From Magnetococcales bacterium (GTDB lineage: Bacteria; Pseudomonadota; Magnetococcia; Magnetococcales; JADGCH01), in NCBI GenBank assembly GCA_015229115.1, contig JADGCH010000008.1, positions 11,405-75,404 on the forward strand: a stretch of 64,000 bases of DNA. The letters are read 5' to 3'. This document shows, piece by piece, positions 2,127 through 31,353 of the stretch; positions within the stretch are counted from its first letter, which is position 1; every line of letters starts with the position of its first letter. The position numbers and the translations under genes are program-made. Below the pieces are notes generated by a model, which searched no databases, was not told where the DNA came from, and was given only the letters and a program-made list of their open reading frames with translations.

Positions 2127-3125
2127 GTGAAGCCGATTGATCTAGCACCTCAAACCCATGATGGTTTCTTCAAGGTATGGATCAAAGATGTTGCCACAAT
2201 CCGCAATCTGCTATTGCAGTGGCTGCCGCACCCATTGCGGCAGGAAATCAATTGGTCCATTGATCCGGAAATTCTATCCATCAACTATACCGGTCTGTAT
2301 CATGGTCCCTCCAGTGCCGATTTCCTTATCAAATTGGTCACTGTCCATGACCAGCCTCTGCACGTCTACGTCTTGTTTGAGCATAAGAGTTATTTTGATC
2401 GCTACACACCGATGCAATTATTGCTCTACCAGAGTGAGGAATTAAGGGCCGCATTTATTCGACGAGGCAAAAAAGGACCCTTGCCAGCCATTTTCTGCAT
2501 CGTCCTTTATCATGGATCAGAATCCTGGTCGGAACCAACCTTTTTCCATGCACTCTACGGGGATCTTCCAGCCACGTTTCATGCACATGTGCTTGATTTC
2601 CCCTATCAGCTCCACCATCTGCAACAGATTCCTGACCAGGATATCCTGAAATTACCGGTACGTACTAGCAGTGGACTAATAGCCCTCAAGTATGTTTTCT
2701 CTTCAGAACAGCAGCAAAGAAAAATGATCCTGTTGACTCTGGACCAGATGGCCAACCATCCAGTTGACTCAGATTACCTGTTGCAACTGTTGCGGTACTG
2801 GATGGATCGCTATACCAGCTTTGACCCCCAGATTGCTGACCGGGTTATCGAACAATTGACTATCACCGAGGAGGTTGAAACCATGATATCCGCTTTCGCC
2901 CAGAATTACCTCGACAAGGGCAGACAAGAAGGCAGACAAGAAGGCAGACAAGAAGGCAGACAAGAAGGTCAGACCCATTTGTTACTACGTTTGATGCAGC
3001 GTCGTTTTGGCCAGTTACCCAAAAAGGTGGTTAAAAAGGTCGTTCATGCCAATTCAACCAAACTGGAACGTTGGGGAGACCGCCTGCTGGAGGCTCGGTC
3101 GATTGATGATCTATTTGGTCATTAA
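2127..3125 (+). CDS. Rpn/YhgA-family PD-(D/E)XK recombination-promoting nuclease (transposase-like) with DUF4351-like C-terminus
   Basis: The N-terminus THDGFFKVWIKDVATIRNLLLQWLP, then ..FLIKL......LHVYVLFEHKSY.D and ..IFCIVLYHG are characteristic of the Rpn/transposase_31 family. The C-terminal LLLRLMQRRFGQLPKKVVKKV......LERWGDRLLEARSIDDLF resembles DUF4351. GTG start. Confidence 0.75.
   Translation: MKPIDLAPQTHDGFFKVWIKDVATIRNLLLQWLPHPLRQEINWSIDPEILSINYTGLYHGPSSADFLIKLVTVHDQPLHVYVLFEHKSYFDRYTPMQLLLYQSEELRAAFIRRGKKGPLPAIFCIVLYHGSESWSEPTFFHALYGDLPATFHAHVLDFPYQLHHLQQIPDQDILKLPVRTSSGLIALKYVFSSEQQQRKMILLTLDQMANHPVDSDYLLQLLRYWMDRYTSFDPQIADRVIEQLTITEEVETMISAFAQNYLDKGRQEGRQEGRQEGRQEGQTHLLLRLMQRRFGQLPKKVVKKVVHANSTKLERWGDRLLEARSIDDLFGH
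2919..2966 (+). repeat. Perfect 4 x 12-bp tandem repeat GGCAGACAAGAA, in frame (GRQE x4)
   Basis: Read directly: four identical 12-mers at 2919-2930, 2931-2942, 2943-2954 and 2955-2966, followed by a degenerate fifth start (GGTCAGAC). It encodes the GRQEGRQEGRQEGRQEGQ linker between the nuclease and the C-terminal domain. Confidence 0.95.
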
Positions 3126-3150: not shown

Positions 3151-6100
3151 ATGCCTACCTCTTTTCAATACTCCCTCAACGGTGGTTCAACGACAACCGG
3201 TGATGATGTTACACCGATCATTGGCGTAACTGCCGATGACACAGTTACCATTATCAGTGATACAGGGACAGTCTCGATCTCTGAGATTGAAGTTTTTATA
3301 GGCAACGTCAATGTTGAGACGGTCACCCTGCTGACCAGTGGTATACTGTCTATCAGTGAGGTGGACCAGCTGGTCAGTGATAGCGGTGCTACCGATACCA
3401 TCACCCTGCTGACAGGCGGCATGGTAGCCATCTCCTCCATCGATTCCCTCATCGGTAGCAGTGATGACGATACCGTTACCCTGCTCACCAGTAGTAGCCT
3501 TTACGCCGATGTGGTGGAAACATTCATCAGCAGTAGCGGCGCCACCGATACGGTAACCCTGGTCGCTGGCGGTTTGGTAGCGGTGTCAGAGATCGACTCC
3601 ATCGTCGGTAGTCCATCCTATCTGGAAACCGTGCTACTGCTGACCAACAGTGACCTGTTCCTGTCGGATATTGACTCCCTGATTGGCAGCACCGGCTCTG
3701 ACTTGGTGACCCTGCTCACCAGCGGCCTGTTGTCAATCAGCGAGGTCGACCAAGTGGTCAGCGGCAACAGTGCCACCGATACCATCACCCTGTTGACCAG
3801 TCATGAACTGTCCATCAGCAACATCGATTCGATTCTGAGCATCGGTGATGCTGTCGATACCGTTACCCTGATGACCGGTGGCGTGGTATCGCTCGCTTTG
3901 GTCGACTCTCTTATCGGCAGTAGCGGTGACGACACCGCCATCCTGATCACCAGTGGCTCCATTTGCGCTGATGTGGTCGAAACATTCATCAGCAGCAGTG
4001 GCGCCGTCGATACCGTCACGCTGGTCGCTGGTGGTCTGGTCACGGTGTCAAACATCGACTCCATCATCGGCAGTCTATCTTACGCTGATACGGTCATGTT
4101 GCTGACCAGTAGCACTGTTGTCATGGGTGAGATCGACAACATGAACAGCATCGACAGTCTCATCAGTCTGGCTGACGTCACCGATACCGTTACCTTGATG
4201 GCACCTGGATCGTTAGCAGCATCGGGCATTGACTCCATCATCAGCAACACTGGTAATAACCTGATCACCCTGCTGACCAGCGGCATGGTGTCGGTCAGTA
4301 ACGTTGATGGCCTGGACAGCAGCAGCGGCAGCACCGATACCGTCACCCTGCTCACCAGTGCCGCCGTGGCGGTCCAGAATATCGAATCTATGCTGAGTAG
4401 CATAGGGGCTACCGATACCGTCAATCTGATCAGCAGTGGCCAGTTGTTTGTTAGTGACATCGATCAGATCAACAGCAGTGCTGGTTGTACCGATACCGTT
4501 ACCCTACTCACCAGTAGCGCTGTTTTATTCTCCCATGTCGACTCGGTGGTCAGCGTTGATGGTGCTACCGATACCATCACCGTGCTGATGGGCAGTGCAC
4601 TGGCTGCATCGGGCATCGACTCGATCATCGGTAACTACGTATCTGAACAGGTCACCCTGCTGACCAGTGGGGCTTTGTTCTCCAGCGATGTTGATACACT
4701 GATCAGCGTTGACGGTGCTACTGATACCATTACGCTGGTGGCTAGCAATAATCTATCTGCTTCTGGTGTCGACTCCCTCATCGGCAGCGTCGGTGATGAG
4801 AACGTCTCCCTGCTGACCAGCGGCATTCTCTCCGTCAGCAACATTGGCACTCTGATCGGCAGCACTGGTACAACTGACAGCGTCACCCTGCTCACCAGTA
4901 GCAATCTATTTGAAAAATGGCTCGACACCCTGATCAGCAGCAGCGGCAGTACCGATACCGTGACGTTACTGACCGGCGGAAAGGTCATCGTCTCCGGGAT
5001 CGATTCTCTCATCGGCAGTGGCCTGAACGACTCTGTCGTGTTGCTTACCAGCGGCTCCCTGAGCCTTGATGTCGTTGAGACGCTGATCAGCAGCTCTGGC
5101 ACGACCGATACCGTCACACTGGTGGCCGGCGGTAACATGGCGGTGTCGGGCATCGACTCGATCGTTGGCTACAGCTATTACGACCAAGTCACCCTGCTTA
5201 CTGGCAGCGAGGTGTCTGTCAGCAACATCGACGAAATCATCAGCAGCTACGGCATCACCGATACCGTTGTTCTGCTCACCAGCAGTGCTGTATCCCTCCT
5301 CAGAATTGATTCCATTAGCAGTAGCAGTGGCGCAACCGATACGGTGACCCTGATGGCTGGTGGTCACGTAACAACCTCCAACATCGATTCCATTGCTGGC
5401 ACCTCGGCGTGGGAACACCTTACCCTGCTGACCAGTGGTAGTTTATCGATCGGTGAGATCGACCGATTGAGTAGCCATTCCGGTGTTACCGATACCATCA
5501 CCCTGCTGACCAGCAGCCTAGCAATCACGAGTGGCATTGACTCGATCCTCAGCACAGCCAATGCTCATGATACGGTGGTCCTGTTAACCAGCAGCATGAT
5601 CGCTGTTGCCAATGTCGACTCGCTTATCAGCGTTGACCACAGTGCTGACGCTCTCTCTTTTGATAGCGCCGTTGAATATACCACCGGTACCACCGGCTCC
5701 GGACCCATTTCGGTTTGCCTGGATGATGTCAATCGTGATGGCCATCCTGATATACTGGTAGCCAACTATTACACGGCCAGTGTCTCGGTATTGCTCAATA
5801 ATGGTAATGGTACTTTTGCTGCCAAAACTGAATACACCGTCGGTACCAACCCGCTCTCAGTTCATGCAGCCGATGTCAATGGAGATGGTTATCCGGACCT
5901 GCTGGCAGCTAATCAGACCTCCGGTGATGTTTCAGTCCTGCTCAACAATGGCAACGGTAGCTTTGCCAGCCATCAACCCTATACCACAGGGACTGCTCCT
6001 TTTTCAATTAGTTCAGGTGATCTGGATCGTGACGGGGATCTGGATCTGCTGGTCGCCAACAGCACTTCCGGTAATGTTTCGGTTCTGTTCAATCAGGGTG

Positions 6101-9100
6101 ATGGCACCTTTCCAACCAAAACAGATTACTCCACCAGCGGTGCCAATGGCGGTGCTACGGGCGTAGCCGTTGCCGATGTCAACCGTGATGGCTGGCTGGA
6201 TATCCTGGTCACCAGCACTGCTCCCGACACGGTTGCGGTGCTGCTCAACAATGGTAGTGGCAGCTTCCCCACCCAAACTGACTATGGCACGGGCGTTGAT
6301 CCACGTTCGATCCACATCGCCGATCTGGATGGAGATGACTGGCCCGATATTCTGACCGCCAACTCGACGGGCAACACTGTTTCGGTGTTGCGCAACAACG
6401 GCGATGGCACCTTTGCCGCTCCAAATGACCTCCTTAGTGGTCCTGCTCCCATGTCAGTCAGTGTCGCCGATGTGGATAGCGATGGTCTCCCCGATATCAT
6501 CGTCAACAATGCAGGTTCTACCACACTCTCGGTGCTGCACAACAACGGTGATGGGACCTTTGCCAGCAAGGTTGACTATACCAGTGGGTCCGGTCCTTAT
6601 TGGGTTAACGCAGCCGATGTCAATGGAGATGGTCGGCTTGATCTGGTCGCGGTTAATCATGGTTCTGCCAGTGTTTCGGTGCTGCTCAATACCAGCCAGT
6701 TTGTTGCCACCCCAGGCAACAGCGGTGCTACCGATACCGTTATCCTGCTCACCAGCAGCGCCTTATCCATCGCTGGCATTGACTCCATCCTGAGCACTGC
6801 TGGTGCTACCGATACCGTTACCCTGCTCGCCAGTACCACCCTGTCCATTAGCTGTGTTGACTCCATCCTGAGCAGTAGTAGCGTTGTTGATACCGTGCGA
6901 TTACTGACCAGCAGCCACGTTTTCGTGTCCGATGTGGATAAGCTTATCAGCTTGGTTGGTGTCACCGATACCATCTCCCTGCTCGCCAGTGGCATCCTGT
7001 CCGCCAGCTGTGTTGACTCCATCCTGGGTAGCGGTGTCACCCTTGATACGGTAAGCCTGCTGACCAGCGGAGCCCTGTTCATCAGCTCCATCGACAAGTT
7101 GGTCAGTGTGAACGATGCTACCGATACCGTCACCCTGCTGACCAGCAGCTCCATAGTGACCAGTGGCGTTGATTCGATCCTCAGTGTCACGGGCGCTACC
7201 GATACGGTGCGGTTACTGACCAGCCACAACCTGACCGTGTCCGGTGTTGATCGAATCATCAGCCTGGTGGGCGTTACCGATACCGTCACCCTGCTGACCA
7301 GCAGCAAGCTGTTTGTCTCCAATGTCGATTCGATCATCAGTGGCAGTGGCGCCACCGATGTTGTCAAGTTGCTATTACCGTCCAGCATCACGGTCGATGG
7401 CATTGACTCGATCATCGGTTCAACCGGTGCCGACACCGTTACGGTGATCAGCGATGCGGCTGTGATGATCCAAGCCGGCTACGGGGCCGATCAGATCAAT
7501 CTGCTGTCGGGTCACACGACGGCCACCACCATCGTCTATGCACTGCCAAGCGATAACGACACCATCACCAACTTTGCCGCTGGCGTCGATAAAATCCGTT
7601 TAAGAACCGGACCCACCGGCGGTGTTCCGGTCACTATGTCGATGAGTGGCACAGCAACCACACCCGGCACGGTTTGGCTGGATGTCAATAACGACGCCAT
7701 CGGCGACGTCACCCTGACGTTGGTCAACATGACTGGCTCCCTGACGGCTAGCGATTTCATCATCACCAGTTCGCAGTCCGTCACCTTTTCAACGGCTACC
7801 AACCATGCTACGGGATCAACGCCTCAAGGGGTCACCAGCGCTGATTTCAATGGCGATGGCGTGGCCGATCTGGCTGTGACCAACGGAGGCAGTGGTACAG
7901 TATCGGTGCTGCTGGGCACTGGATCGGGCAACTTCGCCAATGCTACCAGTCATACGGTCGGCACCAGCCCCTATTCAGTCGCCAGTGCCGATTTCAACCG
8001 AGATGGAATCATGGATCTGGCCGTTGCCAATTCCGGCAGCAACAACATCTCCATACTGATCGGTACTGGGGCGGGTGGTTTCAGCACGGCATCCCCTTTT
8101 GCTACCGGTACCGTACCCATGACGATTCTTGTCGCCGACTTCAACAGCGACGGACTCATCGATCTCGCCACTGCCAACCACAATGGCGGTAGTGATAACC
8201 TGTCCGTATTGCTAGGTAACGGTTCAGGCAGCTTTGCCACAGCCGTTCCCTACACCGCTGGCAGTTACTCGACCGCTGTCACCAGCGCTGATTTCAATAG
8301 CGACGGTCTGTTGGACATCGCCTGCACCAACTTCATGAGCAACGACATTTCCATCCTGCTGGGCGATGGATCGGGCGGCTTTACAGCCTCTGGTAGTCCT
8401 CTTAGCAGTGCTGCCCGCCCGCGTTCGATCATCAGTGCCGACTTGAACGGCGATGGCGTGGTCGATCTCGCCACGGCCAATTACGATGGCAACAACGTCT
8501 CGGTGTTTCTGGGTACCGGATCGGGCAGCTTTGCCAATGCCACCCACCATACCACGGGCACTAGCCCGCGTGAGATTATTACAGACGATTTCAATAACGA
8601 TGGCATCGCTGATCTAGCCACCGCCAACTATGGCAGCAACAACCTGTCGGTACTGCTGGGAACCGGGTTAGGCGGCTTCCTGACTGCCGTCAGTTATGCC
8701 GTAGGCGTGCTACCGACGGCGATCGTTGGCGCCGACCTGAATGGCGATGGCGTGGCCGATCTGGCGGTCACCAATGAGTCCAACAACAACGTGTCAGTAC
8801 TGCTGACACAACCTCTGTCAGCACCCACTGCCCTCGATCTGGATGCTGCCGATGATACCGGCACCAATAACGACAACAGCACCACCCAAGCCAGCAATCT
8901 GACTATTAGCGGTACTGGTGGCATAGCTGGCACGATCCTGTCGCTGTTTGATGATCAGGACAACGACAATCTGATCGACAGTGGAGAATTGCTGGTCACG
9001 GCCAGCATCACTGGCCAGGCCTGGAGCGCTGATATCAGCCTGACAACAGGCACCCATACCATCAAGGCCATCCAGACAGACAGCGCCGGAGCCAACAGCC

Positions 9101-12100
9101 ACGCTTCGACGGCGTTGACCCTCACCATTGTTAACTCCTCATCGACCTTGATCGGTACCAGCGGCAGTACCGATACCGTCACCATCCTGACCAGTGGCGC
9201 ACTCTATGCCACCGAGGTCGATGTGTTATTGAGTGGCAGCAGCAGTACCGATACTGTCACCCTGCTCACCAGTGGCTCCCTGGCTATCTCGAAAATCGAT
9301 TCCATCCTCAGCGCAGCAGGAGTGACCGATACTGTCACCCTGATGTCTGGCGGCATCGTCACCGTTTCCGGTGTCGACCAAGTGATTGGTTCGACTCCAT
9401 CTAACATCAACGATGCCCTGTCCAGCACCTGGACGACCGTCGATACCGGCTATTCTTACTACTACGAGGTGCACGCTGGCGATATCAATAATGATGGCAC
9501 CATCGAACTGGTGGGCGGCGATTCCAGCACGGGCGATCTGGCCTATTTCACCCAGACCACAGCACGTACCCTGACCTATAATGCCATCACCTACACCTCC
9601 ACCTACAAGGGGGCCATCTATGGCTCCGATCTGGCCGATCTCAATAACGACGGCCTGCTCGATTTTATCTCCGCCGGATCCAATGGCGCCTCAACCAGCA
9701 ATAACAGCGTCTTTCAGTTCAGCGGTGGCACCTACAGCTTCATCAACAGTACCTATGGTTACAGCGCCATCGCACTCTATGGCCAGGATGCGACTCATCT
9801 GGATGTTAACGGCGATGGCTACCAGGAGGTGCTTTGGGCCGGCAATACCGATCTGACCTATGGCCTCAACACCACGGCCTCGACCGGTGCATCGCCAACC
9901 TTCACCGTCAGCAACGTCACCAGTACCACCGCCTATCCCAACAAGCTGGCTACTGGCGACTTCGATGGCGACGGCGATCTGGATGTGGTCGCCGATCACA
10001 ACAGCTCAACGGCCGTCACGGTCTTTTATGATACCGGCAGCAGTCTGGTGGCCCAGGCCGGCCCAACCTTGCCGTTCAACAGTGGTTATTACATCGCCAC
10101 CGGTGACATCAATGGGGACGGCTATTGCGATGCCATCTTTGGCAACGTGGCCAGTAATGGCAATTATGCCGTCTCCCTCGGTAGCAATACCGGATTGCAG
10201 GCAGCCTCTTCCTACAACGTCTCGGCCATCGGAGCCAACAATATCCTCGGTACGGCTCTGGGTGATCTGGATAATGATGGCAAGCTCGATCTGGTACTGT
10301 CCAATCTCAATGCAGTCTTTTACCTGACCGGTAACGGTGACGGTACTTTCACCTACCGGAAGCAAATTGCTGCCAGTGGTTCCGTCTCGGTATCGATTGC
10401 CGATGTGGACCAGGATGGGCTGAAAGATATTGTCACTGCCGGCGGTGTCATTCGGGTTTATTTCCAGAATGCTGTGGGTAGCAACAGTGTCAGTTACGAT
10501 ACCGTCAATCTGATCAGCAACAGCTCGGTGATGCTGACACAGGTGGAAAGCGCCCTGGGTTCTACTGGAGCGGAAAGCGTTACGCTGATGACCAGTGGCA
10601 CCCTGATGGTATCAACGGTCGATACCCTTTTCAGCACTGCTGGTGCTACCGATACCATCACCCTGCTCACCAGCAGTTCATTGGCCGTTTCGTCAGTCGA
10701 CTCGGTTCTCAGCAGCAGTGGTGCGACCGATACGGTCACGCTGCTGACCAGTAGTCTGTTGACGGCATCGTTGGTTGATTCAATCCTCAGTGCTGCTGGT
10801 GCGACCGATACGGTCACTCTGCTGACCAGCGGCAGCTTGTTCCTATCGGACCTTGACTCAATCATTGGTAGCAGCGGCACAACGGATACCGTGACGCTGC
10901 TGAATCAAACGGCCGTCCTGTCCAATATCCATACGGTCATTGGCTCAACGGGTATCGATACTATTGTACTGCTGTCAACCCCAACACTCACGTATACCAG
11001 CCTGTCCAATATCGAAACGGTGATCGGTACAGCATCGCTCGACACGATCAAACTGTTGACTTCCAGCTCTATTGCCGTATTCAGCATCGATACGGTGATC
11101 AAATCGTCGGCCGGTACAGATACCGTAACGTTATTGTCCAACATCGCCACGTTGCATGGCATTGAAACAGTCATCGGTACCGCCAGCAGCGATACGGTCA
11201 TATTTAGTTTCGCATGGGATGTTAAACTATCCCAGGTTGATTCGATCACCGGCCATACCGGTATTGACACCATCACCCTGCTGACTAGTAGCCAACTGAT
11301 AGCCAGCGGCATCGAGTCACTGTCCAGTAACACTGGGGCTACCGATACCGTCACCCTGCTCACCAGTGGATCATTGATTGTTGGATCGATTGACTCACTG
11401 ATCAGCAGCAGTGGTGCGACCGATACCATCACGCTGTTGTCAACGGGCGTGACTCTGGGAGCCAGCGGCGTTGACTCGATCATCGGTGGAACCGGTGTGG
11501 ATACGGTTACACTGCTGACCAGTGGCAATCTGGCCTACATGACCAGTATCGAATCCGTGATCAGCGGCAGTGGGGCCACCGATACCGTCACCCTGCTCAC
11601 CAGCAGTCTGTTGACCACTTCCGGTATCGACTCCATCGTTAGCAGTGCTGGTGTTACAGATACCGTCACTCTGCTAACCAGTAGCACCCTGATCACTTCC
11701 GGTATCGATTCCATCGTTAGTGCTAGCGGGGCTACCGACACAGTGACCCTGCTCACCAGCGCTGCCATAGCCGTTAGTGCCATCGACTCCATTGTTGGTA
11801 GCAGCGGGGTGGTGGATACCACCACCCTGCTCACCAGTGGGGCTCTCTACATGAATGGCACCCACTCAGTCATCAGTGGCAGTGGACTGACCGATACCAT
11901 TACCCTGACCCATGCCGGGGCTTATCTGGCCATCTCAGGTGTTGACTCGGTGGTGGGTGGCAGTGGCGTTGACACCGTCACCCTGCTCACCAGCGGCACT
12001 GTTGTCATCAGCCATGTCGATAGCCTGATTGGTTCAGCAGGTGACGACACCGTGATCGTGCTGGATAGCAGCACGATCGTCATGATGAATGTCGAGAGTG

Positions 12101-15100
12101 TCACTTACGTCAATATCAGTGTTCCGTCGGCGCCAACCGATCTGGTCCTTGCTACTGACGATGACAATGGTCGTGACAATACGGACCGCATCACCAGTCA
12201 AACCAGCAACCTAACCATCAGCGGTGAGGGTGGCGACGTTGGAATGACGCTGACTCTATTTGACGATCAGGATAGCGATGATGTTGTTGACAGCGGTGAA
12301 ACGCTGATCACCTTCGTCGTGACCAGCAGCAGCTGGAGCGGCGATATCGCCTTGGCAGCAGGCACCCATAACGTTAAAGCCCTGCAAAGCAATGTGAGTG
12401 GTAACAGTGAGGCGACGTCAGCGCTGGTCATCACCGTCGATATCACTGCACCAACCACGCCCACCGCGCTTGAGCTGGCCGCAGCCGATGACAGTGGTCT
12501 TTCGGACAGCGATCGTATCACCAGCCAGACCAGCAGCCTGACCATTAGCGGTAGTGGTGGCGAAGTGGGTAACGTGCTGGTGCTGTTGGACAATGAACAA
12601 CCCTTGGCCACCCTGACCGTTAGCGATACGCTCTGGAGCATTGATGTTGACCTGACCCCTGGTACCCATGCCCTAACAGCTGTCCAAGCCAACGCCTCTG
12701 TCAGTAGCGATGCGTCAACGGTGTTGATGGTGACGGTCGATACCACGACGCCAGCGATGGTCACCGGTATTGATTTATCAGCCGAGGACGACAGTGGTTG
12801 GTCCTCTAGCGACAACATCACACGCTACACCAGCGCCTTGACCCTCAGCGGCCAGGGTGATGCAGCAGCACAATTATGGCTGTTCGACGATCTGGACGGC
12901 AGCGATATCGCTGATGAGAGTGAGTATCTGGCCACCGTTCTGGTCACGGGCAGTCTGTGGCAGACCGATGTTGCGCTGACCGTTGGCACGCACAGCCTCA
13001 AAGCCATTCAAACCAGTGCGGCTGGCATAAGCAGCCTGCCTTCGCTGCCCCTGACGGTCACCGTAGCTCCGACCATCACGCCTGTTACCCCGACCGATCT
13101 TGATCTTGCCGCCAGCGATGATAGTGGTACAGCCCAGGATGACCATATAACCACCCAGACGACAGCTCTGACCATCAGCGGCCAGGGCGGCACTGCTGGT
13201 CAGATGCTGCTGTTGTTCGATGACAGTGGAGACGGTCATGAACTGCTTGCCACCCTGATCGTGACGGACACAAGCTGGAGCACCGATATCAGCCTCGGTG
13301 ACGGCGTTCACGACATTCGGGCCATTCAGATGGACATGGTCGGCCATAGTAGCCCAGCCTCATCCGCCCTTACCCTGACCATCGACGGGATTATTGCCAG
13401 CGCAACCCCAACCTATCTTGCCCTGGCCACGTCCGACGACAGCGGATGGCTGAACAACGATAACCTGACCTCCCGAAGTGCTGTCACCATCAGCGGCGAC
13501 GGCGCCCTGGCCAGTGGCCAGATGCTGCTGTTCGACCAGGGCTCAACGGTGGCAACCCTCACGTTGACCGGCAGCAGCTGGAGCAGCACACTCAGCCTGG
13601 CGGAAGGCATTCATACCATCCAGGCGCTGCAGTATAATGCCGCAGGTAGCAGCCCGATCTCGTCAGCCCTGACTGTGACGGTCGATAGCACACCACCAAC
13701 CGAGCCATCATCGCTCGATCTGGCCAGCGAGGATGATGTGGGTCTGTCCAACAGTGACAACCTCACCAATCAGGTCAGTGGCCTGACCATCAGCGGTCAG
13801 GGTGGCGAAGCAGGTGCACGGATCCTGCTGTTCGATGGCGATAGCGTCATAGCCCAGTTCGATGCTACCGGCACCAATTGGAGTGGCGATATCAACCTGG
13901 CTAGCGGCCAGCATACCATCCGGGCAGCACAACAGGACCGCGCTGGCAACACCAGTGCTCTGTCATCGGCCCTGATCCTCACCATCGATGCCACGGCAGC
14001 ACCGAACATACCTGGCTATCTCGATCTGGCCCATGAAGATGACAGTGGCTTCTCCAACAGCGATCATATCACCCGCTTCAGTAGCAACCTCACCATCCAG
14101 GGACAGGGAGGCACCGCAGGAACCACCTTGTTCCTGTTGGATAAGGATAACCAGACCCTGGCCACCACCGCTGTCACCGGCGACAGCTGGAGCGTGGACA
14201 TCAGTCTGTCGGTCGGCGCTCACACCCTGCGCGCCATGCAGCAGAATGTCGCCAGCGGCAGCAGTCCCCTGTCATCGGCCCTGACCCTCACCATCGATAA
14301 CGGTATCCCCGACGCACCGACTAACCTGATGCTGGCGGCTGACGATGACACTGGTCTGTTGGATAATGATCGCCTTACCAGCCAGAACGATGGCCTGACC
14401 ATCTCCGGCGACAATGGCGAAACTGGCGCCCATATCATCCTGATGGACGACCAGCTGGCCTTGGCGACCGTTACCGTCACAGGATCAGGCTGGAGCGGCG
14501 ATATCGATCTGACCGCCGGAACGCACACCGTCCGGGCCCTACAGCAGGATGCTGCCGGTCATGACAGTGCGCTGTCCGATCCTTTGATCATCACAGTCGA
14601 CAACTCGGCGGCACCGGCGGCACCGACCAACCTGGACCTGGATGCCACAGACGATCATGGTCTACTGGACGACGATAACGTTACCAACCAGACCAACAGC
14701 CTCACCATCAGCGGCAGTGGTGGTGAGATCGGTGCCCGCATGATTCTGCTGGATGGTACGACACCCTTGACCACGCTTGCCATGACCGAGGCCAGCTGGA
14801 GCTACGACGTCACCCTGTCAGAGGGCAGCCATGCCATTCGTGCCATCCAGAAAGATCGGGTCGGCAGCAGCAGCCCGGCCTCGGCAACGCTGTGGCTGAC
14901 CATCGATACCACCGTAGCCACCCCAACTGTGGCCCTGGCCCAGGACAGTGGCAGCAGTACCATCGACCACCTGACCTCCAATGGCACCTTGACCGTGGCG
15001 GCGATCGAAGCCGGTGCAATGGTGCAATACAGCCGGGATGGTGGCGACAGCTGGACTGAAACAGTAGCCCTGGAAGATGGCAGCCATACCATCCGGGTCC

Positions 15101-17346
15101 GGCAGACTGATCGCGCTGGCAACATCAGCGCGGCGTCAACGCCCTTAGCGCTGACGCTGGACAGCGTTGCTCCTGCCACGCCCTCCGCTACCCTGAGCAA
15201 TGATACCGGTGACAGCACCATTGATCTCATCAGCCACGACGCGACCCTGACCCTCCACGACCGTGAGAATGGGGCCACGCTCCAGTACAGCCGTGATGGT
15301 GGTAACAGCTGGTCGAGCCAGTTTAGCGCTGTCGAAGACAGTAATAGCCTGCAGCTACGCCAGATCGACCAAGCCGGTAACGTCAGCGGCCTCTCAACAC
15401 CCCTGACCTTCACGTTCGATAGCACAGCCCCGCTGGCTCCTACCCAGCTGGATCTGGCCCGCGAGGACGACGTCAGCCCATCAGGTAGCGCCAATATTGC
15501 CGCACGCACCAGTGGGTTGACCCTTAGCGGCCAAGGGGAACCAGGGGCCATGCTGGTGCTGTTGGATGACCAGGAACCGGTGGCCACCCTCAGCATCACC
15601 GCTACCACATGGCGTACCGATCTCACGCTGCCAGCCGGCAGTCATGTCATCCGCGCCATGCAGACCGATACAGCCGGTAACAGCAGCACTGTTTCCAGCC
15701 CACTCAACCTGCTGATCGATACCAGCAGCCCGCTGTTCGACCTGAACGCCACCACCGTCATCAGCACCAGTCACACCATAACCGGTACAACCTCCAGCCA
15801 GGATCGGTTGACTTTCCTGTCGGACTCGACCTATCTGTCGGTTTCGGCCATTGAGACGGTCATTGGTTCCAGCGGCAGCGATAGCGTGACACTGCTGTCA
15901 ACCAGTGGCGCCACCGTTGCCGTCTCGCTGGTGGAATCGGTCATCGGCGGCTATGATCTCGACACCCTGACGTTGCTGACGGGTAGTGCGGTGACTCTGG
16001 CGCGCATCGATTCCATTCGTGGCAGCAGTCTGGCAGATACCATCACTCTGCTGACCGGCAGTCGTGTTTTTACCAGCCGGGTTGAGTCCATCGTCGGCAG
16101 CAGCAACAGCGATACCGTACGCATGATCGGCGCAGATAGCCTCACGGTAACAGCCGTCGAGTCTGTTATCGGCAGCAACAGCCTTCAGGACACCGTTACC
16201 CTGAGCCAGTCTGCATCACTGTTCAGCTCCAGGGTCGAAACCGTCATCGGCTCAACAGGACAGGATCGTGTCGCCCTGCTGGCCAGTGGCAACCTGTACA
16301 GCAGCCAGATTGAAACCGTCCTGGGCAGTGCTGCCGTCGAGACGCTCTCCCTGCTCGTGGCCAGCTCGGTGGTCATCAGTCAGGTCAATTCGATCATGGG
16401 TAGCGGTGGCATCGATACCGTTGCCCTGCTGACCAGCAGCAGTCTGGTCGTTTCATCCGTCGAGCAAATCCTGGGCAGTGCCGGCAAGGATCGTGTCAGC
16501 TGGATGGGTCCCGGTCAGACCACTGTCATCAGCATCGAAACCCTCACCGGCAGTGATGAAACAGAAACCATCACCCTGTTGACAGCCGAGAAAGTGGCTG
16601 TTGCTGATATCGACAGTGTCATCGGCACAGCCGGCCTCGACACCCTTAGTCTGATCACCGGCGGAGAGATCACGTTGGCTGGCATCGAAATGGTCAGTGG
16701 ATCGCGCAGCGGTGACGAACGGGTCACCCTGGCCCGTGCTGGCACGATCACCCTGTCACTGGTCGAAACCGTTATCGGGTCAACCGGGTCGGATACCATC
16801 ACCCTGAAAGGTAATTCAACGGTGGTGGTGGTGGCCGGAGCTGGTAGTGATACCGTCGCGGGTAGCGCTGGCAAGGAATGGTTTCTTTTTCGTTCTATCA
16901 CCGATTCACCAGCCGGCCAGGGAGACCGTATCGACAACTTCGAGAGGAGTCGCGATGTACTGGTATTCGATGGTCTGCAGACCGGGACCTTCCTCTATCT
17001 GGCGGCCGGTAGCTTTACGCGCAGCAATCGTTCCCAAGCCCGTTTTGACAGCAGCACGAAAGTGCTGCAGGTCGACACCAACGGTGACGAAACAGTGGAT
17101 ATGGAGATGACCCTGCCCAAAGTCACCTCCTTGACCGCTGCCAATTTCTCCTGGAGCGCGTCGAATCGGGCTGCCTCGGCAACGGCTCTGGGACGAATGA
17201 TCGGGACAGCAACACAGGTTTCCACGGGGCCCCTCACCCTGCCCTCTCCTGCAGGGGGAGAAGGATCGTTGTTTATCGTTTCAGCCAACGATGGTGACTG
17301 GTATATTAGCAGCCAGACCGATATACTGGCCCCAGTTGCCAGATAG
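3151..17346 (+). CDS. Giant (4731 aa) RTX-type repeat protein, putative type I-secreted surface adhesin
   Basis: Single uninterrupted 14,196-nt frame from ATG 3151 (the first start after in-frame TAA 3136-3138) to TAG 17344-17346. There is no signal peptide. The protein is modular (see sub-features) and acidic, rich in S/T/D/G/L/V. It ends with an RTX nonapeptide plus a C-terminal secretion-type module. Confidence 0.9.
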   Translation: MPTSFQYSLNGGSTTTGDDVTPIIGVTADDTVTIISDTGTVSISEIEVFIGNVNVETVTLLTSGILSISEVDQLVSDSGATDTITLLTGGMVAISSIDSLIGSSDDDTVTLLTSSSLYADVVETFISSSGATDTVTLVAGGLVAVSEIDSIVGSPSYLETVLLLTNSDLFLSDIDSLIGSTGSDLVTLLTSGLLSISEVDQVVSGNSATDTITLLTSHELSISNIDSILSIGDAVDTVTLMTGGVVSLALVDSLIGSSGDDTAILITSGSICADVVETFISSSGAVDTVTLVAGGLVTVSNIDSIIGSLSYADTVMLLTSSTVVMGEIDNMNSIDSLISLADVTDTVTLMAPGSLAASGIDSIISNTGNNLITLLTSGMVSVSNVDGLDSSSGSTDTVTLLTSAAVAVQNIESMLSSIGATDTVNLISSGQLFVSDIDQINSSAGCTDTVTLLTSSAVLFSHVDSVVSVDGATDTITVLMGSALAASGIDSIIGNYVSEQVTLLTSGALFSSDVDTLISVDGATDTITLVASNNLSASGVDSLIGSVGDENVSLLTSGILSVSNIGTLIGSTGTTDSVTLLTSSNLFEKWLDTLISSSGSTDTVTLLTGGKVIVSGIDSLIGSGLNDSVVLLTSGSLSLDVVETLISSSGTTDTVTLVAGGNMAVSGIDSIVGYSYYDQVTLLTGSEVSVSNIDEIISSYGITDTVVLLTSSAVSLLRIDSISSSSGATDTVTLMAGGHVTTSNIDSIAGTSAWEHLTLLTSGSLSIGEIDRLSSHSGVTDTITLLTSSLAITSGIDSILSTANAHDTVVLLTSSMIAVANVDSLISVDHSADALSFDSAVEYTTGTTGSGPISVCLDDVNRDGHPDILVANYYTASVSVLLNNGNGTFAAKTEYTVGTNPLSVHAADVNGDGYPDLLAANQTSGDVSVLLNNGNGSFASHQPYTTGTAPFSISSGDLDRDGDLDLLVANSTSGNVSVLFNQGDGTFPTKTDYSTSGANGGATGVAVADVNRDGWLDILVTSTAPDTVAVLLNNGSGSFPTQTDYGTGVDPRSIHIADLDGDDWPDILTANSTGNTVSVLRNNGDGTFAAPNDLLSGPAPMSVSVADVDSDGLPDIIVNNAGSTTLSVLHNNGDGTFASKVDYTSGSGPYWVNAADVNGDGRLDLVAVNHGSASVSVLLNTSQFVATPGNSGATDTVILLTSSALSIAGIDSILSTAGATDTVTLLASTTLSISCVDSILSSSSVVDTVRLLTSSHVFVSDVDKLISLVGVTDTISLLASGILSASCVDSILGSGVTLDTVSLLTSGALFISSIDKLVSVNDATDTVTLLTSSSIVTSGVDSILSVTGATDTVRLLTSHNLTVSGVDRIISLVGVTDTVTLLTSSKLFVSNVDSIISGSGATDVVKLLLPSSITVDGIDSIIGSTGADTVTVISDAAVMIQAGYGADQINLLSGHTTATTIVYALPSDNDTITNFAAGVDKIRLRTGPTGGVPVTMSMSGTATTPGTVWLDVNNDAIGDVTLTLVNMTGSLTASDFIITSSQSVTFSTATNHATGSTPQGVTSADFNGDGVADLAVTNGGSGTVSVLLGTGSGNFANATSHTVGTSPYSVASADFNRDGIMDLAVANSGSNNISILIGTGAGGFSTASPFATGTVPMTILVADFNSDGLIDLATANHNGGSDNLSVLLGNGSGSFATAVPYTAGSYSTAVTSADFNSDGLLDIACTNFMSNDISILLGDGSGGFTASGSPLSSAARPRSIISADLNGDGVVDLATANYDGNNVSVFLGTGSGSFANATHHTTGTSPREIITDDFNNDGIADLATANYGSNNLSVLLGTGLGGFLTAVSYAVGVLPTAIVGADLNGDGVADLAVTNESNNNVSVLLTQPLSAPTALDLDAADDTGTNNDNSTTQASNLTISGTGGIAGTILSLFDDQDNDNLIDSGELLVTASITGQAWSADISLTTGTHTIKAIQTDSAGANSHASTALTLTIVNSSSTLIGTSGSTDTVTILTSGALYATEVDVLLSGSSSTDTVTLLTSGSLAISKIDSILSAAGVTDTVTLMSGGIVTVSGVDQVIGSTPSNINDALSSTWTTVDTGYSYYYEVHAGDINNDGTIELVGGDSSTGDLAYFTQTTARTLTYNAITYTSTYKGAIYGSDLADLNNDGLLDFISAGSNGASTSNNSVFQFSGGTYSFINSTYGYSAIALYGQDATHLDVNGDGYQEVLWAGNTDLTYGLNTTASTGASPTFTVSNVTSTTAYPNKLATGDFDGDGDLDVVADHNSSTAVTVFYDTGSSLVAQAGPTLPFNSGYYIATGDINGDGYCDAIFGNVASNGNYAVSLGSNTGLQAASSYNVSAIGANNILGTALGDLDNDGKLDLVLSNLNAVFYLTGNGDGTFTYRKQIAASGSVSVSIADVDQDGLKDIVTAGGVIRVYFQNAVGSNSVSYDTVNLISNSSVMLTQVESALGSTGAESVTLMTSGTLMVSTVDTLFSTAGATDTITLLTSSSLAVSSVDSVLSSSGATDTVTLLTSSLLTASLVDSILSAAGATDTVTLLTSGSLFLSDLDSIIGSSGTTDTVTLLNQTAVLSNIHTVIGSTGIDTIVLLSTPTLTYTSLSNIETVIGTASLDTIKLLTSSSIAVFSIDTVIKSSAGTDTVTLLSNIATLHGIETVIGTASSDTVIFSFAWDVKLSQVDSITGHTGIDTITLLTSSQLIASGIESLSSNTGATDTVTLLTSGSLIVGSIDSLISSSGATDTITLLSTGVTLGASGVDSIIGGTGVDTVTLLTSGNLAYMTSIESVISGSGATDTVTLLTSSLLTTSGIDSIVSSAGVTDTVTLLTSSTLITSGIDSIVSASGATDTVTLLTSAAIAVSAIDSIVGSSGVVDTTTLLTSGALYMNGTHSVISGSGLTDTITLTHAGAYLAISGVDSVVGGSGVDTVTLLTSGTVVISHVDSLIGSAGDDTVIVLDSSTIVMMNVESVTYVNISVPSAPTDLVLATDDDNGRDNTDRITSQTSNLTISGEGGDVGMTLTLFDDQDSDDVVDSGETLITFVVTSSSWSGDIALAAGTHNVKALQSNVSGNSEATSALVITVDITAPTTPTALELAAADDSGLSDSDRITSQTSSLTISGSGGEVGNVLVLLDNEQPLATLTVSDTLWSIDVDLTPGTHALTAVQANASVSSDASTVLMVTVDTTTPAMVTGIDLSAEDDSGWSSSDNITRYTSALTLSGQGDAAAQLWLFDDLDGSDIADESEYLATVLVTGSLWQTDVALTVGTHSLKAIQTSAAGISSLPSLPLTVTVAPTITPVTPTDLDLAASDDSGTAQDDHITTQTTALTISGQGGTAGQMLLLFDDSGDGHELLATLIVTDTSWSTDISLGDGVHDIRAIQMDMVGHSSPASSALTLTIDGIIASATPTYLALATSDDSGWLNNDNLTSRSAVTISGDGALASGQMLLFDQGSTVATLTLTGSSWSSTLSLAEGIHTIQALQYNAAGSSPISSALTVTVDSTPPTEPSSLDLASEDDVGLSNSDNLTNQVSGLTISGQGGEAGARILLFDGDSVIAQFDATGTNWSGDINLASGQHTIRAAQQDRAGNTSALSSALILTIDATAAPNIPGYLDLAHEDDSGFSNSDHITRFSSNLTIQGQGGTAGTTLFLLDKDNQTLATTAVTGDSWSVDISLSVGAHTLRAMQQNVASGSSPLSSALTLTIDNGIPDAPTNLMLAADDDTGLLDNDRLTSQNDGLTISGDNGETGAHIILMDDQLALATVTVTGSGWSGDIDLTAGTHTVRALQQDAAGHDSALSDPLIITVDNSAAPAAPTNLDLDATDDHGLLDDDNVTNQTNSLTISGSGGEIGARMILLDGTTPLTTLAMTEASWSYDVTLSEGSHAIRAIQKDRVGSSSPASATLWLTIDTTVATPTVALAQDSGSSTIDHLTSNGTLTVAAIEAGAMVQYSRDGGDSWTETVALEDGSHTIRVRQTDRAGNISAASTPLALTLDSVAPATPSATLSNDTGDSTIDLISHDATLTLHDRENGATLQYSRDGGNSWSSQFSAVEDSNSLQLRQIDQAGNVSGLSTPLTFTFDSTAPLAPTQLDLAREDDVSPSGSANIAARTSGLTLSGQGEPGAMLVLLDDQEPVATLSITATTWRTDLTLPAGSHVIRAMQTDTAGNSSTVSSPLNLLIDTSSPLFDLNATTVISTSHTITGTTSSQDRLTFLSDSTYLSVSAIETVIGSSGSDSVTLLSTSGATVAVSLVESVIGGYDLDTLTLLTGSAVTLARIDSIRGSSLADTITLLTGSRVFTSRVESIVGSSNSDTVRMIGADSLTVTAVESVIGSNSLQDTVTLSQSASLFSSRVETVIGSTGQDRVALLASGNLYSSQIETVLGSAAVETLSLLVASSVVISQVNSIMGSGGIDTVALLTSSSLVVSSVEQILGSAGKDRVSWMGPGQTTVISIETLTGSDETETITLLTAEKVAVADIDSVIGTAGLDTLSLITGGEITLAGIEMVSGSRSGDERVTLARAGTITLSLVETVIGSTGSDTITLKGNSTVVVVAGAGSDTVAGSAGKEWFLFRSITDSPAGQGDRIDNFERSRDVLVFDGLQTGTFLYLAAGSFTRSNRSQARFDSSTKVLQVDTNGDETVDMEMTLPKVTSLTAANFSWSASNRAASATALGRMIGTATQVSTGPLTLPSPAGGEGSLFIVSANDGDWYISSQTDILAPVAR
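3220..5650 (+). repeat. Array A of the 25-26-residue DTVTLLTS..IDS.IGS.G.T repeat (about 31 units)
   Basis: 78-bp period. For example, the word ACCGATACCGTCA recurs at 4333 and 4411. The unit count is estimated as array length divided by 78. Confidence 0.85.
5650..6700 (+). other. FG-GAP/VCBS beta-propeller 1 (7 blades)
   Basis: Seven D.[ND].DG..D loops (DDVNRDGHPD, ADVNGDGYPD, GDLDRDGDLD, ADVNRDGWLD, ADLDGDDWPD, ADVDSDGLPD, ADVNGDGRLD), each followed by ..AN....VSVLLNNG.GTF. Confidence 0.8.
6715..7420 (+). repeat. Array B of the 25-26-residue repeat (about 9 units)
   Basis: Same consensus and period as array A. Confidence 0.8.
7420..7775 (+). other. Internal copy of the RTX-type C-terminal module
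   Basis: GADTVTVIS...AGYGADQINLL.......DTITNFAAGVDKIRL.........VWLDVNNDAIGDVTLTLVNMTGSLTASDFII parallels the true C-termini of both giant ORFs (D.I.NF....D.L.F ... VD.NGD...D....L....LTA.NF). Confidence 0.6.
7780..8812 (+). other. FG-GAP/VCBS beta-propeller 2 (7 blades)
   Basis: Seven loops: ADFNGDGVAD, ADFNRDGIMD, ADFNSDGLID, ADFNSDGLLD, ADLNGDGVVD, DDFNNDGIAD and ADLNGDGVAD, each followed by ..N....SVLLG.G.G.F. Confidence 0.8.
8815..9135 (+). other. Single adhesin-type Ig-like domain
   Basis: ALDLDAADDTGTNNDNSTTQASNLTISGTGG..G....LFDD........W..DISLT.GTHTIKAIQTD.AGN follows the same pattern as the long Ig array. Confidence 0.65.
9135..9400 (+). repeat. Array C of the 25-26-residue repeat (about 3 units)
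   Basis: GSTDTVTILTSGALYATEVDVLLSGSSSTDTVTLLTSGSLAISKIDSILSAAGVTDTVTLMSGGIVTVSGVDQVIGS. Confidence 0.8.
9410..10475 (+). other. FG-GAP-like beta-propeller 3 (7 blades, divergent)
   Basis: Seven loops: GDINNDGTIE, ADLNNDGLLD, LDVNGDGYQE, GDFDGDGDLD, GDINGDGYCD, GDLDNDGKLD and ADVDQDGLKD. The spacing is less regular than in propellers 1 and 2. Confidence 0.65.
10480..12110 (+). repeat. Array D of the 25-26-residue repeat (about 21 units; unit length 24-28)
   Basis: Same consensus as array A. Some units use IETVIGT instead of IDSIIGS. Confidence 0.8.
12115..15735 (+). other. Tandem array of 12 adhesin-type Ig-like domains (about 95-105 aa each)
   Basis: Ten repeats of L.LA..DD.G.S..D.IT.Q.S.LTISG.GGE.G....L.D......L.....W..D..L..G.H.IRA.Q.D.AGN.S..S..L..T.D. 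Two variant domains at about 14905-15430 carry YSRDGG[DN]SW. Confidence 0.75.
15775..16830 (+). repeat. Array E of the repeat (about 14 units, 25-residue period)
   Basis: Units such as DTITLLTGSRVFTSRVESIVGSSNS are 25 aa long. The array is position-for-position paralogous to the ORF2 array. Confidence 0.8.
16800..17165 (+). other. RTX nonapeptide plus C-terminal (T1SS-substrate-type) module
   Basis: AGAGSDTVA-GSAGKEWFLF, then GQGDRIDNFERSRDVLVFDGLQTGTFLYLAAGSFT...QARFDSSTKVLQVDTNGDETVDMEMTLPKVTSLTAANFSW. This pattern matches serralysin/RTX C-terminal domains. Confidence 0.7.
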
Positions 17347-17369: not shown

Positions 17370-17990
17370 ATGTTAACCACTTTGACAAGTCATTATACTT
17401 TTAATGGTCAAATTATAGATTTAATCAATAATGATCCCGTTACGGTCTACGGTACCAGTGGTGATCCCAGCAATGCGACATCGACTTTCGGATCCGATGC
17501 AACCGGACCCTACTGGAGCTGGACCAGCACCAATGCCAGGGGAGGTGGCTTCACGATCGAGGCCGATCTGGCCGACAAGGGCAGTTACACCCTGGCGATG
17601 CGGTTCCGTTTCGGTGATATGAGTGGCTACCGCAAAATCATCGACTACCGCAACCGCACCACAGACGATGGGCTGTATATCCTGAATGGTTTCGTCAATT
17701 TTTATCCCCTGAACACGGGCAGTGTCGCCTATGCGGCCAACGATTTGATCGATTTGATAGCGACCAGAGATGCTTCCAGTGACTTGTTGACCATCTATCT
17801 GTCCGATGGCCATGGTGGTTATGTCAAGGCCCTGGAGATTCACGACACGACGGGAATTTCTGAGCCGTCCCTGACCAGCAACGGCTTGGCCCGGTTCGGT
17901 TTCTTTTATGATGATCTGCGCACCGGTGGCGAAGCGACCCAAAGTGGCAAGGTCTATCAGATCAGTCTCTGGGATGGCTCCCTGACAGCT
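17370..17990 (+). other. Concanavalin A-like/LamG-like N-terminal domain (tentative)
   Basis: The ...SYTLAMRFRF.....YRKIIDYRN...DDGLYILNGFVNFYP.......DLIDLIATRD....LTIYL.DG......FGFFYDD....GEATQSGKVYQISLWDGSL pattern is reminiscent of Laminin_G_3 domains. This is motif-level evidence only. Confidence 0.4.
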
Positions 17991-30323: not shown

Positions 30324-30520
30324 GAAGTTTCTTTAAGCGGTTAGGTCATACGGATGTCACCAAACTCACCGGTTATGATAATTGATTTCTATCAAGTCTG
30401 CAACAACAAACGAACCCTAAAGAGGGCCGCAGAGGCCGTTGCGAGTGCATTTATGAGGCGGCTATTAAGCTACATGAACGACGTTGTTATGAAGGGGATA
30501 GGAAGCAGCGACCATCGTAT

Positions 30521-30542
30521 GCCTGGGGCGACTGCCCCAGGC
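30521..30542 (-). terminator. Perfect 9-bp stem / 4-nt loop hairpin (terminator-like, no U-tract)
   Basis: GCCTGGGGC-gact-GCCCCAGGC, read directly. It lies about 60 nt downstream of the NarL-type regulator stop (30604). A second, smaller hairpin GCCCC-tct-GGGGC lies at 30555-30567. Confidence 0.45.
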
Positions 30543-30603
30543 TAATCACGAACCGCCCCTCTGGGGCTTGTATGAAACGCGATTCGCAAAGGTCATGGCA
30601 AGA

Positions 30604-31233: not shown

Positions 31234-31353
31234 GATCGACTCCAGTTCACGTTCTTACCACCTCTTTTTGGGGGGGTCATTGTACAGGGATTGTCAGAAC
31301 ACGCAATCAACACAACAACGATTTTTATGTAGCCATCAATCGACGAAAAGTCC

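Follow-up and report, generated by a model that had tools for sequence, protein, structure and literature searches.

Two giant genes with arrays of a 25-26-residue repeat

The 64,000-nucleotide stretch of Magnetococcales DNA analysed here, the full length of which is termed the window, carries two adjacent giant open reading frames (ORFs) on its forward strand, the products of which contain six tandem arrays of a repeat with a period of 25 or 26 residues (75-78 bp). ORF1 (3151-17346, + strand) is intact and encodes an acidic, multidomain protein of 4731 residues with five of the arrays, together with, according to Pfam and NCBIfam scans, three FG-GAP regions, approximately 11 Big_13 immunoglobulin (Ig)-like domains and an RTX/serralysin-type C terminus. 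ORF2 (17370-23477, + strand) is likewise intact and encodes 2035 residues with PPC and Big_13 domains, one array and an RTX tail; its product is identical in sequence to MBF0158572.1 from a Magnetococcales metagenome-assembled genome (MAG). The two genes are probably co-transcribed, because only 23 nt separate the ORF1 stop codon from the ORF2 start codon.

Units were scored with a profile hidden Markov model (HMM), seeded with 15 perfect 26-residue units, iterated three times and read at a threshold of 8 bits. The HMM gave 94 matches in ORF1 and ORF2, 86 of them above 8 bits, in six arrays, and 20 shuffles of both proteins gave no match above this score. An initial annotation, made from the DNA letters and translations, had estimated 85-90 copies in six array ranges; the count bears out the estimate, and the ranges agree with the HMM arrays to within a few tens of bases. 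Consecutive units lie 26 residues apart in 47 cases, 25 in 27, 27 in two and 32 in one, i.e. the spacing is 25-26 residues and not 9 or 18, as had been claimed.

Array 1 (nt 3238-5646, ORF1 residues 30-832) has 31 units, mainly 26-mers with a 25-mer at every second or third unit. Array 2 (nt 6733-7434, residues 1195-1428) has nine units, all 26-mers, and is directly followed by an internal cap-like module (nt 7435-7830, residues 1429-1560). Three units make up array 3 (nt 9172-9405, residues 2008-2085), whereas array 4 (nt 10498-12123, residues 2450-2991) has 19 scored units, or about 21 as judged by its length. The 12 units of array 5 (nt 15805-16794, residues 4219-4548) are mainly 25-mers with a G-S-x-G-x-D junction, after which the ORF1 tail (nt 16795-17346) comprises a PF00353 match at residues ~4561-4574, a Peptidase_M10_C-like module and the C terminus. 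In ORF2, array 6 (nt 22173-23081, residues 1602-1904) has 12 units, almost all 25-mers, and leads into a tail (nt 23082-23477) with canonical RTX nonapeptides (residues 1916-1934, nt 23115-23171) and a serralysin-type C-terminal domain. All of these features are on the + strand.

Anatomy and age of the repeat unit

The consensus initially read from the translation is correct, and can now be refined in that it covers two unit types. The 26-mers, which prevail in the internal arrays, follow D-T-[VI]-T-L-L-T-S-[GS]-x-[LVI]-x-x-S-x-[VI]-[DE]-x-[ILV]-[ILV]-S-S-x-G-A-T, with an S-S-S-G-A-T end leading into the next D-T-V-T-L-L-T-S. The 25-mers, which prevail in the two C-terminal arrays (5 and 6), follow D-T-[VI]-T-L-[LM]-x-[GS]-[GS]-x-[VL]-x-x-[SA]-x-[IV]-[DE]-[ST]-[ILV]-I-G-S-x-G-x, with G21 at 92% and an I-G-S-x-G-x end leading into D-T-V-T-L. 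The 25-mer junction, G-S-x-G-x-D-T-V-T, corresponds to the RTX nonapeptide GGxGxDxUx with Ser in place of Gly2; the 26-mer junction, S-S-x-G-A-T-D-T-V-T, lacks Gly1 and has an extra residue ahead of the Asp. Nineteen of the 86 units contain a relaxed RTX motif, G[GSANDT]xGxDxUx (0.24 expected from shuffles), and 24 contain an RTX motif with one residue inserted between G and D (0.86 expected); strict GGxGxD is present in three places only.

Over their 2290 residues, the arrays consist to 32% of Ser and Thr, contain almost no Pro (0.3%), Cys or Trp, and are very acidic, with 230 Asp and Glu residues versus 41 Lys and Arg (net charge -189). The acidic positions of each coil are conserved (D1, 77-85%; D/E17, 88-89%), as are Thr/Ser at the outward-facing positions 2, 4, 7, 8 and 26 (66-85%).

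Between units, mean pairwise identity is 52% at the nucleotide level and 41% at the amino-acid level; by codon position it is 0.51, 0.65 and 0.41 (first to third), i.e. conservation is highest at the second position and lowest at the third. The units are old, and their periodicity, as these codon-position identities indicate, is upheld by selection on the protein and not by recent DNA duplication. Because of this age, Tandem Repeats Finder detects only four short 78-bp arrays. Exact DNA repetition is nevertheless present in places: the 13-mer ACCGATACCGTCA occurs at 4333 and 4411, the two positions originally given, and at six more in-phase sites (chance expectation 0). Within array 1, a three-unit block (…DVVETFISSSGATDTVTLVAGG…SPSYLETV…) recurs at ORF1 residues 107, 261 and 627 (window 3469-5200), the copies having 29-42% identity across 154 residues; because of this recurrence, array 1 appears to have grown in part through duplication of multi-unit blocks.

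Relationship of the repeat to RTX proteins

Pfam and NCBIfam models cover the FG-GAP, Big_13/Ca_tandemer and PPC domains of the two proteins, with HemolysinCabind and Peptidase_M10_C matching only in the last ~150 residues. Whether whole proteins, isolated arrays or segments of four units were scanned, the window units were assigned to no family, and arrays 1, 2 and 4 gave no match to PF00353 even at E-values up to 10; 9-residue canonical RTX tandems are confined to the stretches of the two tails described above. No curated family in Pfam or NCBIfam with a 25-26-residue period was found, and a literature search found no 26- or 27-residue repeat linked to the beta-roll or to type I secretion. 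Neither a single array nor the window profile gave a significant match to PDB sequences (best: leucine-rich repeat (LRR) designs, E 0.4-1.1; a ferredoxin reductase, E 0.57), and the profile searches placed the unit in no structurally characterised family of the same period.

Relatives were sought with HMMER, using a profile of four-unit segments against 1.84 billion representatives, giving 123 related clusters (50% identity) at E ≤ 1e-3, 66 at E ≤ 1e-10 and 13 at E ≤ 1e-30. The 26-residue repeat family is rare, with ~120 clusters among these representatives. Word-indexed homologue searches recovered no more than 4 and 19 relatives, all of them weak, and did not return ORF2, and a related-locus search of genome contigs with a four-unit query returned nothing. 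A degenerate DNA pattern, in which two DTVTLLT motifs lie 78 nt apart, found no viral-contig and no genome-contig loci, a weak result in that the pattern has only three matches in the window itself.

In the proteins retrieved from the representatives and by the homologue searches, spacings of 25-27 residues dominate, and the family consensus, [VI]-E-T-L-x-G-G-x-G-x-D-x-V-T-L-G-x-x-G-N-T-x-x-V-x-x, amounts to one RTX nonapeptide plus 17 residues. Closest in type to the window units are five proteins of the same MAG (P0005, P0017, P0024, P0025 and P0053, i.e. MBF0158254.1, MBF0158942.1, MBF0160446.1, MBF0159569.1 and MBF0160368.1, respectively) and four metagenomic proteins (P0003, P0026, P0033 and P0004); all remaining relatives form one recognisable family of equal period. 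At least five further proteins of the Magnetococcales MAG end in a cassette of Big_13 domain, 25-mer array and serralysin-type tail, and the repeat is exceptionally expanded in this one genome, being present in at least seven proteins. ORF1 was returned by neither protein search, and ORF2 was returned (as P0006); ORF1 may be unannotated, or handled as a pseudogene, in the public record.

Among the other relatives, arrays come directly after the RTX region of serralysin-like M10 proteases, as exemplified by P0001 from Pararhodospirillum oryzae, which has 11 consecutive spacings of exactly 26. Giant proteins with the family repeat include P0008 (Azospirillum argentinense, ~25 units), P0046, P0048 and P0068, from Azospirillum, Azospirillaceae and Methylobacterium; these taxa and unclassified Pseudomonadota are the named sources of relatives. 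The relatives carry generic names ('beta strand repeat-containing protein', 'Ca2+-binding RTX toxin-like protein'), and whole-protein Pfam/NCBIfam scans of them gave no family with its best-matching stretch inside the arrays.

The link to RTX proteins runs through this wider family. Comparison by hhalign of the window profile (A2) with the wider-family profile (A4) gave a probability of 97.7% and an E-value of 1.9e-12 over 94 columns, in register, with one-residue gaps located where the two consensus sequences differ; the conserved positions D1, T4, L5, [IV]16, E/D17 and G24 are common to both. PF00353 is passed by eight of nine four-unit A4 segments (best 34.8 bits, with a gathering score of 23), and A4 finds the Bordetella CyaA RTX chains 7usl_C and 6sus_A in the PDB (E 7e-6), its [VI]-E-x-[VL]-x-G-x-x-x-D aligning with V/I-E-N-V-I-G-S-x-x-D motifs of CyaA. 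The homology is transitive (A2 to A4 to PF00353 and CyaA), the window profile alone finding no PDB chain. Because of this chain, the RTX resemblance noticed in the initial annotation is to be regarded as homology, beyond a look-alike, and it is highly probable that the window repeat is RTX-derived and shares ancestry with RTX. The window copies would then represent a Ser/Thr-rich branch that has drifted past detection by PF00353. As PF00353 is defined (period 9/18, profile score), the window arrays are outside it; they are RTX-type by descent and, presumably, function, and the 25-26-residue repeat is a new long-period RTX variant. The initial interpretation is in this sense partly supported: the solenoid is borne out by prediction, and the RTX relationship and the lack of a curated family stand, whereas 'unnamed family' holds only for the period and the diverged window units, the repeat belonging to the RTX superfamily, and Ca2+ stabilisation is plausible for the 25-mers and doubtful for the 26-mers.

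Predicted fold

AlphaFold2 (AF2) modelling of 26-mers, using ORF1 residues 2706-2965 (array 4) and a 10-row alignment made up of paralogous arrays and a pair of outside relatives, gave a predicted local distance difference test (pLDDT) score of 82.7 and a predicted template modelling (pTM) score of 0.83, with a strictly periodic pattern of eight-, five- and three-residue strands (E8-E5-E3) per 26 residues. In the model, beta1 has eight residues (T26-D1-T2-V3-T4-L5-L6-T7) and is followed by a two-residue turn; beta2 has five (x10-L11-x12-V13-S14) and is followed by a three-residue turn (x15-I16-D17); beta3 has three (S18-[LI]19-[IL]20) and is followed by a five-residue loop, S-S-S-G-A, the predicted equivalent of the RTX turn. 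On the basis of the model, each unit therefore likely corresponds to a single coil in a parallel beta-solenoid with three sides, the core of which would be packed by the hydrophobic positions 3, 5, 6, 11, 13, 16, 19 and 20. The same all-beta periodicity is predicted, with less confidence, for the 25-mer array of ORF2 (array pLDDT ~55-75; whole model 65.7). A regular all-beta solenoid, and not disorder, is thus what AF2 predicts, in line with the long-period solenoid envisaged from the letters.

Solenoids are a hard case for Foldseek, and searches with the 26-mer model against the PDB and BFVD gave nothing below an E-value of 1e-3. The best matches were to beta-helix proteins only, and were weak (E > 0.1, template modelling (TM) score at most 0.52): the Lactobacillus reuteri SRRP 5NXK (TM 0.5), tapirin 6N2C, polygalacturonases, and the HK620 and LKA1 tailspikes.

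C-terminal modules and export

The tails of both proteins are related to those of serralysin-type exoproteins. Pfam matches are to PF08548 (E 1.7e-5) and PF00353 (E 2.2e-4) for ORF1 and to Peptidase_M10_C and PF00353 (43.6 bits) for ORF2, and Foldseek with an AF2 model of ORF2 residues 1600-2035 retrieved alkaline protease (3vi1/1kap) with a probability of 1.0, with further matches of this predicted structure to serralysin, PrtC, family I.3 lipase, RsaA, AlgE R-modules and CyaA. The internal module after array 2 is homologous to the serralysin-type C-terminal modules of ORF1 and ORF2 (BLASTP E 4e-8 to the ORF1 tail; 5e-7). Because a copy of the cap thus sits internally, the arrangement suggests that ORF1 was assembled by fusion of several 'array + cap' exoprotein modules.

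The N termini of ORF1 and ORF2, as judged by reading the sequence, run straight into repeats or domains with no apparent signal peptide. This feature, the high acidity and the presence of an RTX stretch with a serralysin-type C-terminal domain are those of type I substrates of the serralysin/RTX type, because of which export of both proteins in the unfolded state via type I secretion, with folding outside the cell, is most likely. Parts typical of LapA and of the Marinomonas primoryensis ice-binding RTX adhesin (MpIBP) are present, i.e. extender domains (Big_13, Ca_tandemer), FG-GAP and PPC domains, and an RTX tail; no match to an N-terminal retention-module model of the LapA/MpIBP type was obtained in the Pfam/NCBIfam scan of the window proteins.

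Related units in phage proteins

The closest relative outside the MAG, with 54% identity to the window 26-mers, is P0003, a protein of 621 residues (L002:8001-9866, Logan SRR32481741_52939), which has FG-GAP repeats, 3-4 DTVTLLTSG units and, at its C terminus, the virion-structural domain phrog_1731; its gene lies in a Mu-like phage region, immediately behind the tape-measure gene. Because P0003 combines both elements beside a tape-measure gene, the combination of FG-GAP and solenoid module is common to ORF1-type proteins and a phage tail/virion protein. A second example, from the wider 26-residue family, is P0054 (JGI, 773 residues), a phrog_3287 virion structural protein in which a 26-residue array is inserted after the first ~125 residues. 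Given its occurrence in phage virion proteins, the repeat may have been exchanged as a module between phage tails and bacterial exoproteins. Three further proteins, P0026, P0033 and P0004, have short DTVTL(L/I)T arrays and a common C terminus, which in P0004 gives a weak tape-measure PHROG match and in P0026 and P0033 no PHROG match.

Discussion

The overall results lead us to propose that the 75-78-bp period arises from some 86 units of 25 or 26 residues repeated in tandem in the proteins, which would constitute a diverged, Ser/Thr-rich branch of a rare 26-residue family, and that the arrays are RTX-derived solenoids with Ca2+ turns, exported by a type I system and serving as rods or spacers. 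To this reading, taken as a whole, we assign a probability of roughly 60%. One unit would give one parallel beta-solenoid coil via beta1 (T-D-T-V-T-L-L-T), beta2 (x-L-x-V-S) and beta3 (S-[IL]-[IL]), with the loop [GS]-S-x-G-x(-T) into the conserved Asp replacing the RTX Ca2+ turn; compared with the RTX beta-roll (18 residues, two turns), the fold would have gained a third strand and would carry a single RTX-type turn per coil. The proteins would leave the cell unfolded through a type I secretion system and fold outside, where Ca2+ would neutralise and bridge the stack of G-S-x-G-x-D turns, if not in all arrays then in the 25-mer arrays beside the C termini. Judging from the junction sequences, it is plausible, with the balance even, that the 25-mers (GSxGxD) bind Ca2+; for the 26-mers (SSxGxTD) Ca2+ binding is doubtful. 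With the usual solenoid rise of ~0.48 nm per coil, arrays 1-6 would form stiff rods of 15, 4, 1.4, 10, 6 and 6 nm, respectively, ~41 nm in total. In adhesin-like surface proteins or exoproteins, such rods would hold the FG-GAP propellers and the Big_13 Ig-like and PPC domains apart and expose them. That the arrays act mainly as structural spacers is a proposition which we regard as evenly poised.

Several observations weigh against this proposal. About half of the units lack an RTX-like junction, the 26-mers having Ser for Gly1 and a residue before the Asp, and PF00353 matches only one of 15 four-unit window segments (E 1.7e-4). The AF2 alignments are shallow (8-10 rows) and largely paralogue-based, and the pLDDT of the five models ranges from 64 to 83. 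Among ORFs of at least 200 residues in the 64-kb window there is no type I ABC transporter, membrane fusion protein or TolC; linkage of type I secretion genes to the substrate gene is not obligatory. Phage proteins fold in the cytoplasm, and the virion proteins P0003 and P0054 presumably do so at low Ca2+. A simple Ca2+-based account is weakened by the modified 26-mer turn, by the lack of type I genes in the window and by the phage relatives. Finally, a passive spacer alone does not account for the conserved outward Thr/Ser at positions 2, 4, 7, 8 and 26, the conservation of which leaves room for a surface function such as glycosylation, self-assembly or ordered-substrate binding.

Some of these observations would be accommodated if the units formed a Ca2+-independent parallel beta-helix, as in pectate-lyase-like adhesins and tailspikes, with the RTX-like turn being a relic and the Thr/Ser faces being functional, e.g. 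with respect to polysaccharide. Consistent with this possibility, the 26-mers have S-S-x-G-x-T-D instead of G-G-x-G-x-D and go undetected by PF00353, like units occur in phage virion/tail proteins adjoining a tape-measure gene, the best (though weak) Foldseek matches are to beta-helix adhesins and tailspikes, and the outward Thr/Ser are strongly conserved. The profile homology with genuine RTX repeats is, however, clear, serralysin-type modules cap the arrays as they do RTX blocks, and the retention of D1 and D/E17 at the frequencies given above, with hardly any basic residues, would make folding hard without counter-ions; we therefore consider a Ca2+-independent beta-helix unlikely. The Ser+Thr content and strong acidity of the arrays would also be in keeping with an intrinsically disordered, mucin-like linker, possibly O-glycosylated, the more so as Magnetococcales, according to a passage in PMC7175107, make a large glycosylated surface protein. 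A linker of this type is very improbable in view of the strictly periodic and conserved nature of the eight hydrophobic positions of the predicted core, the scarcity of Pro, the all-beta solenoid predicted by AF2 (pLDDT 83) and the homology with folded RTX repeats. An LRR-like solenoid, to which the unit length (LRRs, 20-30 residues) and weak unit-by-unit phmmer matches to designed LRRs in the PDB (4j4l, E 0.4; 7yco, E 1.1) might point, is essentially refuted, given that these E-values are non-significant, that there is no Pfam LRR family at E-values up to 10 and no LxxLxLxxN motif, and that the AF2 coil has three strands and zero helix with profile links pointing to RTX.

With respect to function, an improbable variant is that the arrays are themselves the working surface, in which up to 31 coils would present flat Thr/Ser ladders (positions 26, 2, 4, 7 and 8) flanked by Asp/Glu rows. 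A surface of this kind could support Ca2+-dependent self-assembly of a glycosylated extracellular structure, or the binding of an ordered substrate, like the Thr ladders of ice-binding beta-solenoids, and ORF1 would then be a sheath or S-layer-like building block of a magnetotactic coccus. In the passages of PMC7175107 and PMC5088516 that cite Lefevre et al. 2010, the Magnetococcales MO-1 and MC-1 are described as having a flagellar-bundle sheath made of a glycoprotein of >350 kDa (Sap), which is Ca2+-dependent. ORF1 fits with Sap in size (4731 residues, i.e. above >350 kDa), taxon, Ca2+-type repeats and Ser/Thr richness; among the 30 relatives for which the source was looked up, including the nine best, there was no MC-1 or MO-1 protein.

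To our knowledge, RTX repeats have so far been described as 9-residue units and as the 18-20-residue units of MARTX toxins and MpIBP. Like the window arrays, canonical RTX repeats (PF00353; alkaline protease, 1KAP; serralysin, 1SAT; CyaA, 5CVW/6SUS) have a Gly-rich turn leading into Asp and then x-U-x, and are very acidic, form a parallel beta-solenoid (predicted for the window arrays), carry a serralysin-type cap and occur in a type I context (probable for the window arrays), in addition to the profile homology. They differ in their period of 9 (18 per coil) with two turns per coil, compared with 25-26 residues and, as predicted, three strands and one turn in the window repeats; most window units also have Ser for Gly1 and an extra residue before the Asp, and the window arrays are missed by PF00353. 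The wider 26-residue family has a period, register and conserved positions equal to those of the window units, but keeps GGxGxD and a G-x-x-G-N second turn and passes PF00353, whereas in the window units most glycines are replaced by Ser/Thr (L-L-T-S, S-S-S-G-A-T) and one residue is lost in the second turn. The window proteins also have far more copies, with arrays in internal positions and not solely ahead of the C terminus.

Region IV of MpIBP is a 19-residue Ca2+-bound beta-solenoid with proven ice binding, present as one array. It resembles what is proposed for the window arrays in being a long-period, Ca2+-dependent solenoid with a flat, ordered Thr/Asx face in a giant RTX adhesin, and differs in its 19-residue unit, single array and ice-binding role, with no homology being detected. 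MARTX toxins contain atypical RTX repeats with consensus lengths of 18, 19 and 20 residues (Linhartova et al. 2010, PMC3034196). They provide a precedent for Gly-rich RTX-type repeats of non-nine period in giant type I secreted proteins, although their period (18-20 versus 25-26) and consensus are different, and no sequence match with them was seen. Neither of these known non-nonapeptide variants has a period of 25-26 residues or a predicted third strand. Right-handed beta-helices, including the SRRP, tapirin, polygalacturonase and tailspike structures retrieved by Foldseek, share with the predicted window fold a three-sided all-beta solenoid with ~22-26 residues per coil; they differ in that the matches are weak, there is no sequence or Pfam relation to the window units, and the known folds are Ca2+-independent.

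The RTX repeat is a textbook example of a calcium-triggered folding switch and is used in protein engineering. If the proposal is correct, the 26-residue form extends the RTX repertoire to a coil with a third strand and a single Ca2+-type turn, the latter, in this genome, having drifted from the Gly-rich consensus. The natural series GGxGxD to GSxGxD to SSxGxTD raises the question of how much of the motif is needed for Ca2+ binding and for solenoid folding. The family is without a solved structure or a curated model, such that ~2,300 residues here and comparable stretches in ~120 clusters are unannotated; a profile built from the window arrays would mend this gap in annotation.

Other genes in the window

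Within the giant genes there are antisense ORFs of 207-275 residues (6657-7436, 10905-11528, 14802-15626, 17421-18248 and 20213-21028, all on the - strand), which most likely arose as a side effect of repetition and compositional bias on the sense strand. Immediately upstream of ORF1 lies a gene (2127-3125, + strand) for a YhgA/Rpn-like putative transposase (Transposase_31 and DUF4351); the 3' part of this gene contains a nearly perfect 12-bp tandem repeat (GGCAGACAAGAA, 4.6 copies) at 2919-2974. Convergent with the giant genes is a block of signalling genes (23500-32535, - strand), which encodes a response regulator with REC and HD-GYP-type (HD_5) domains, a REC and HATPase_c_2 protein, a hybrid histidine kinase of 1263 residues that includes Hpt, a periplasmic-binding protein and a two-component pair of the LuxR type; it is possible that these are regulators of surface proteins. 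Further downstream, an ORF of 1392 residues (45221-49399, + strand) has no Pfam match at E ≤ 1e-4, and a protein of 1106 residues (60167-63487, - strand) has a eukaryotic-type Ser/Thr protein kinase domain along with eight Sel1 repeats.

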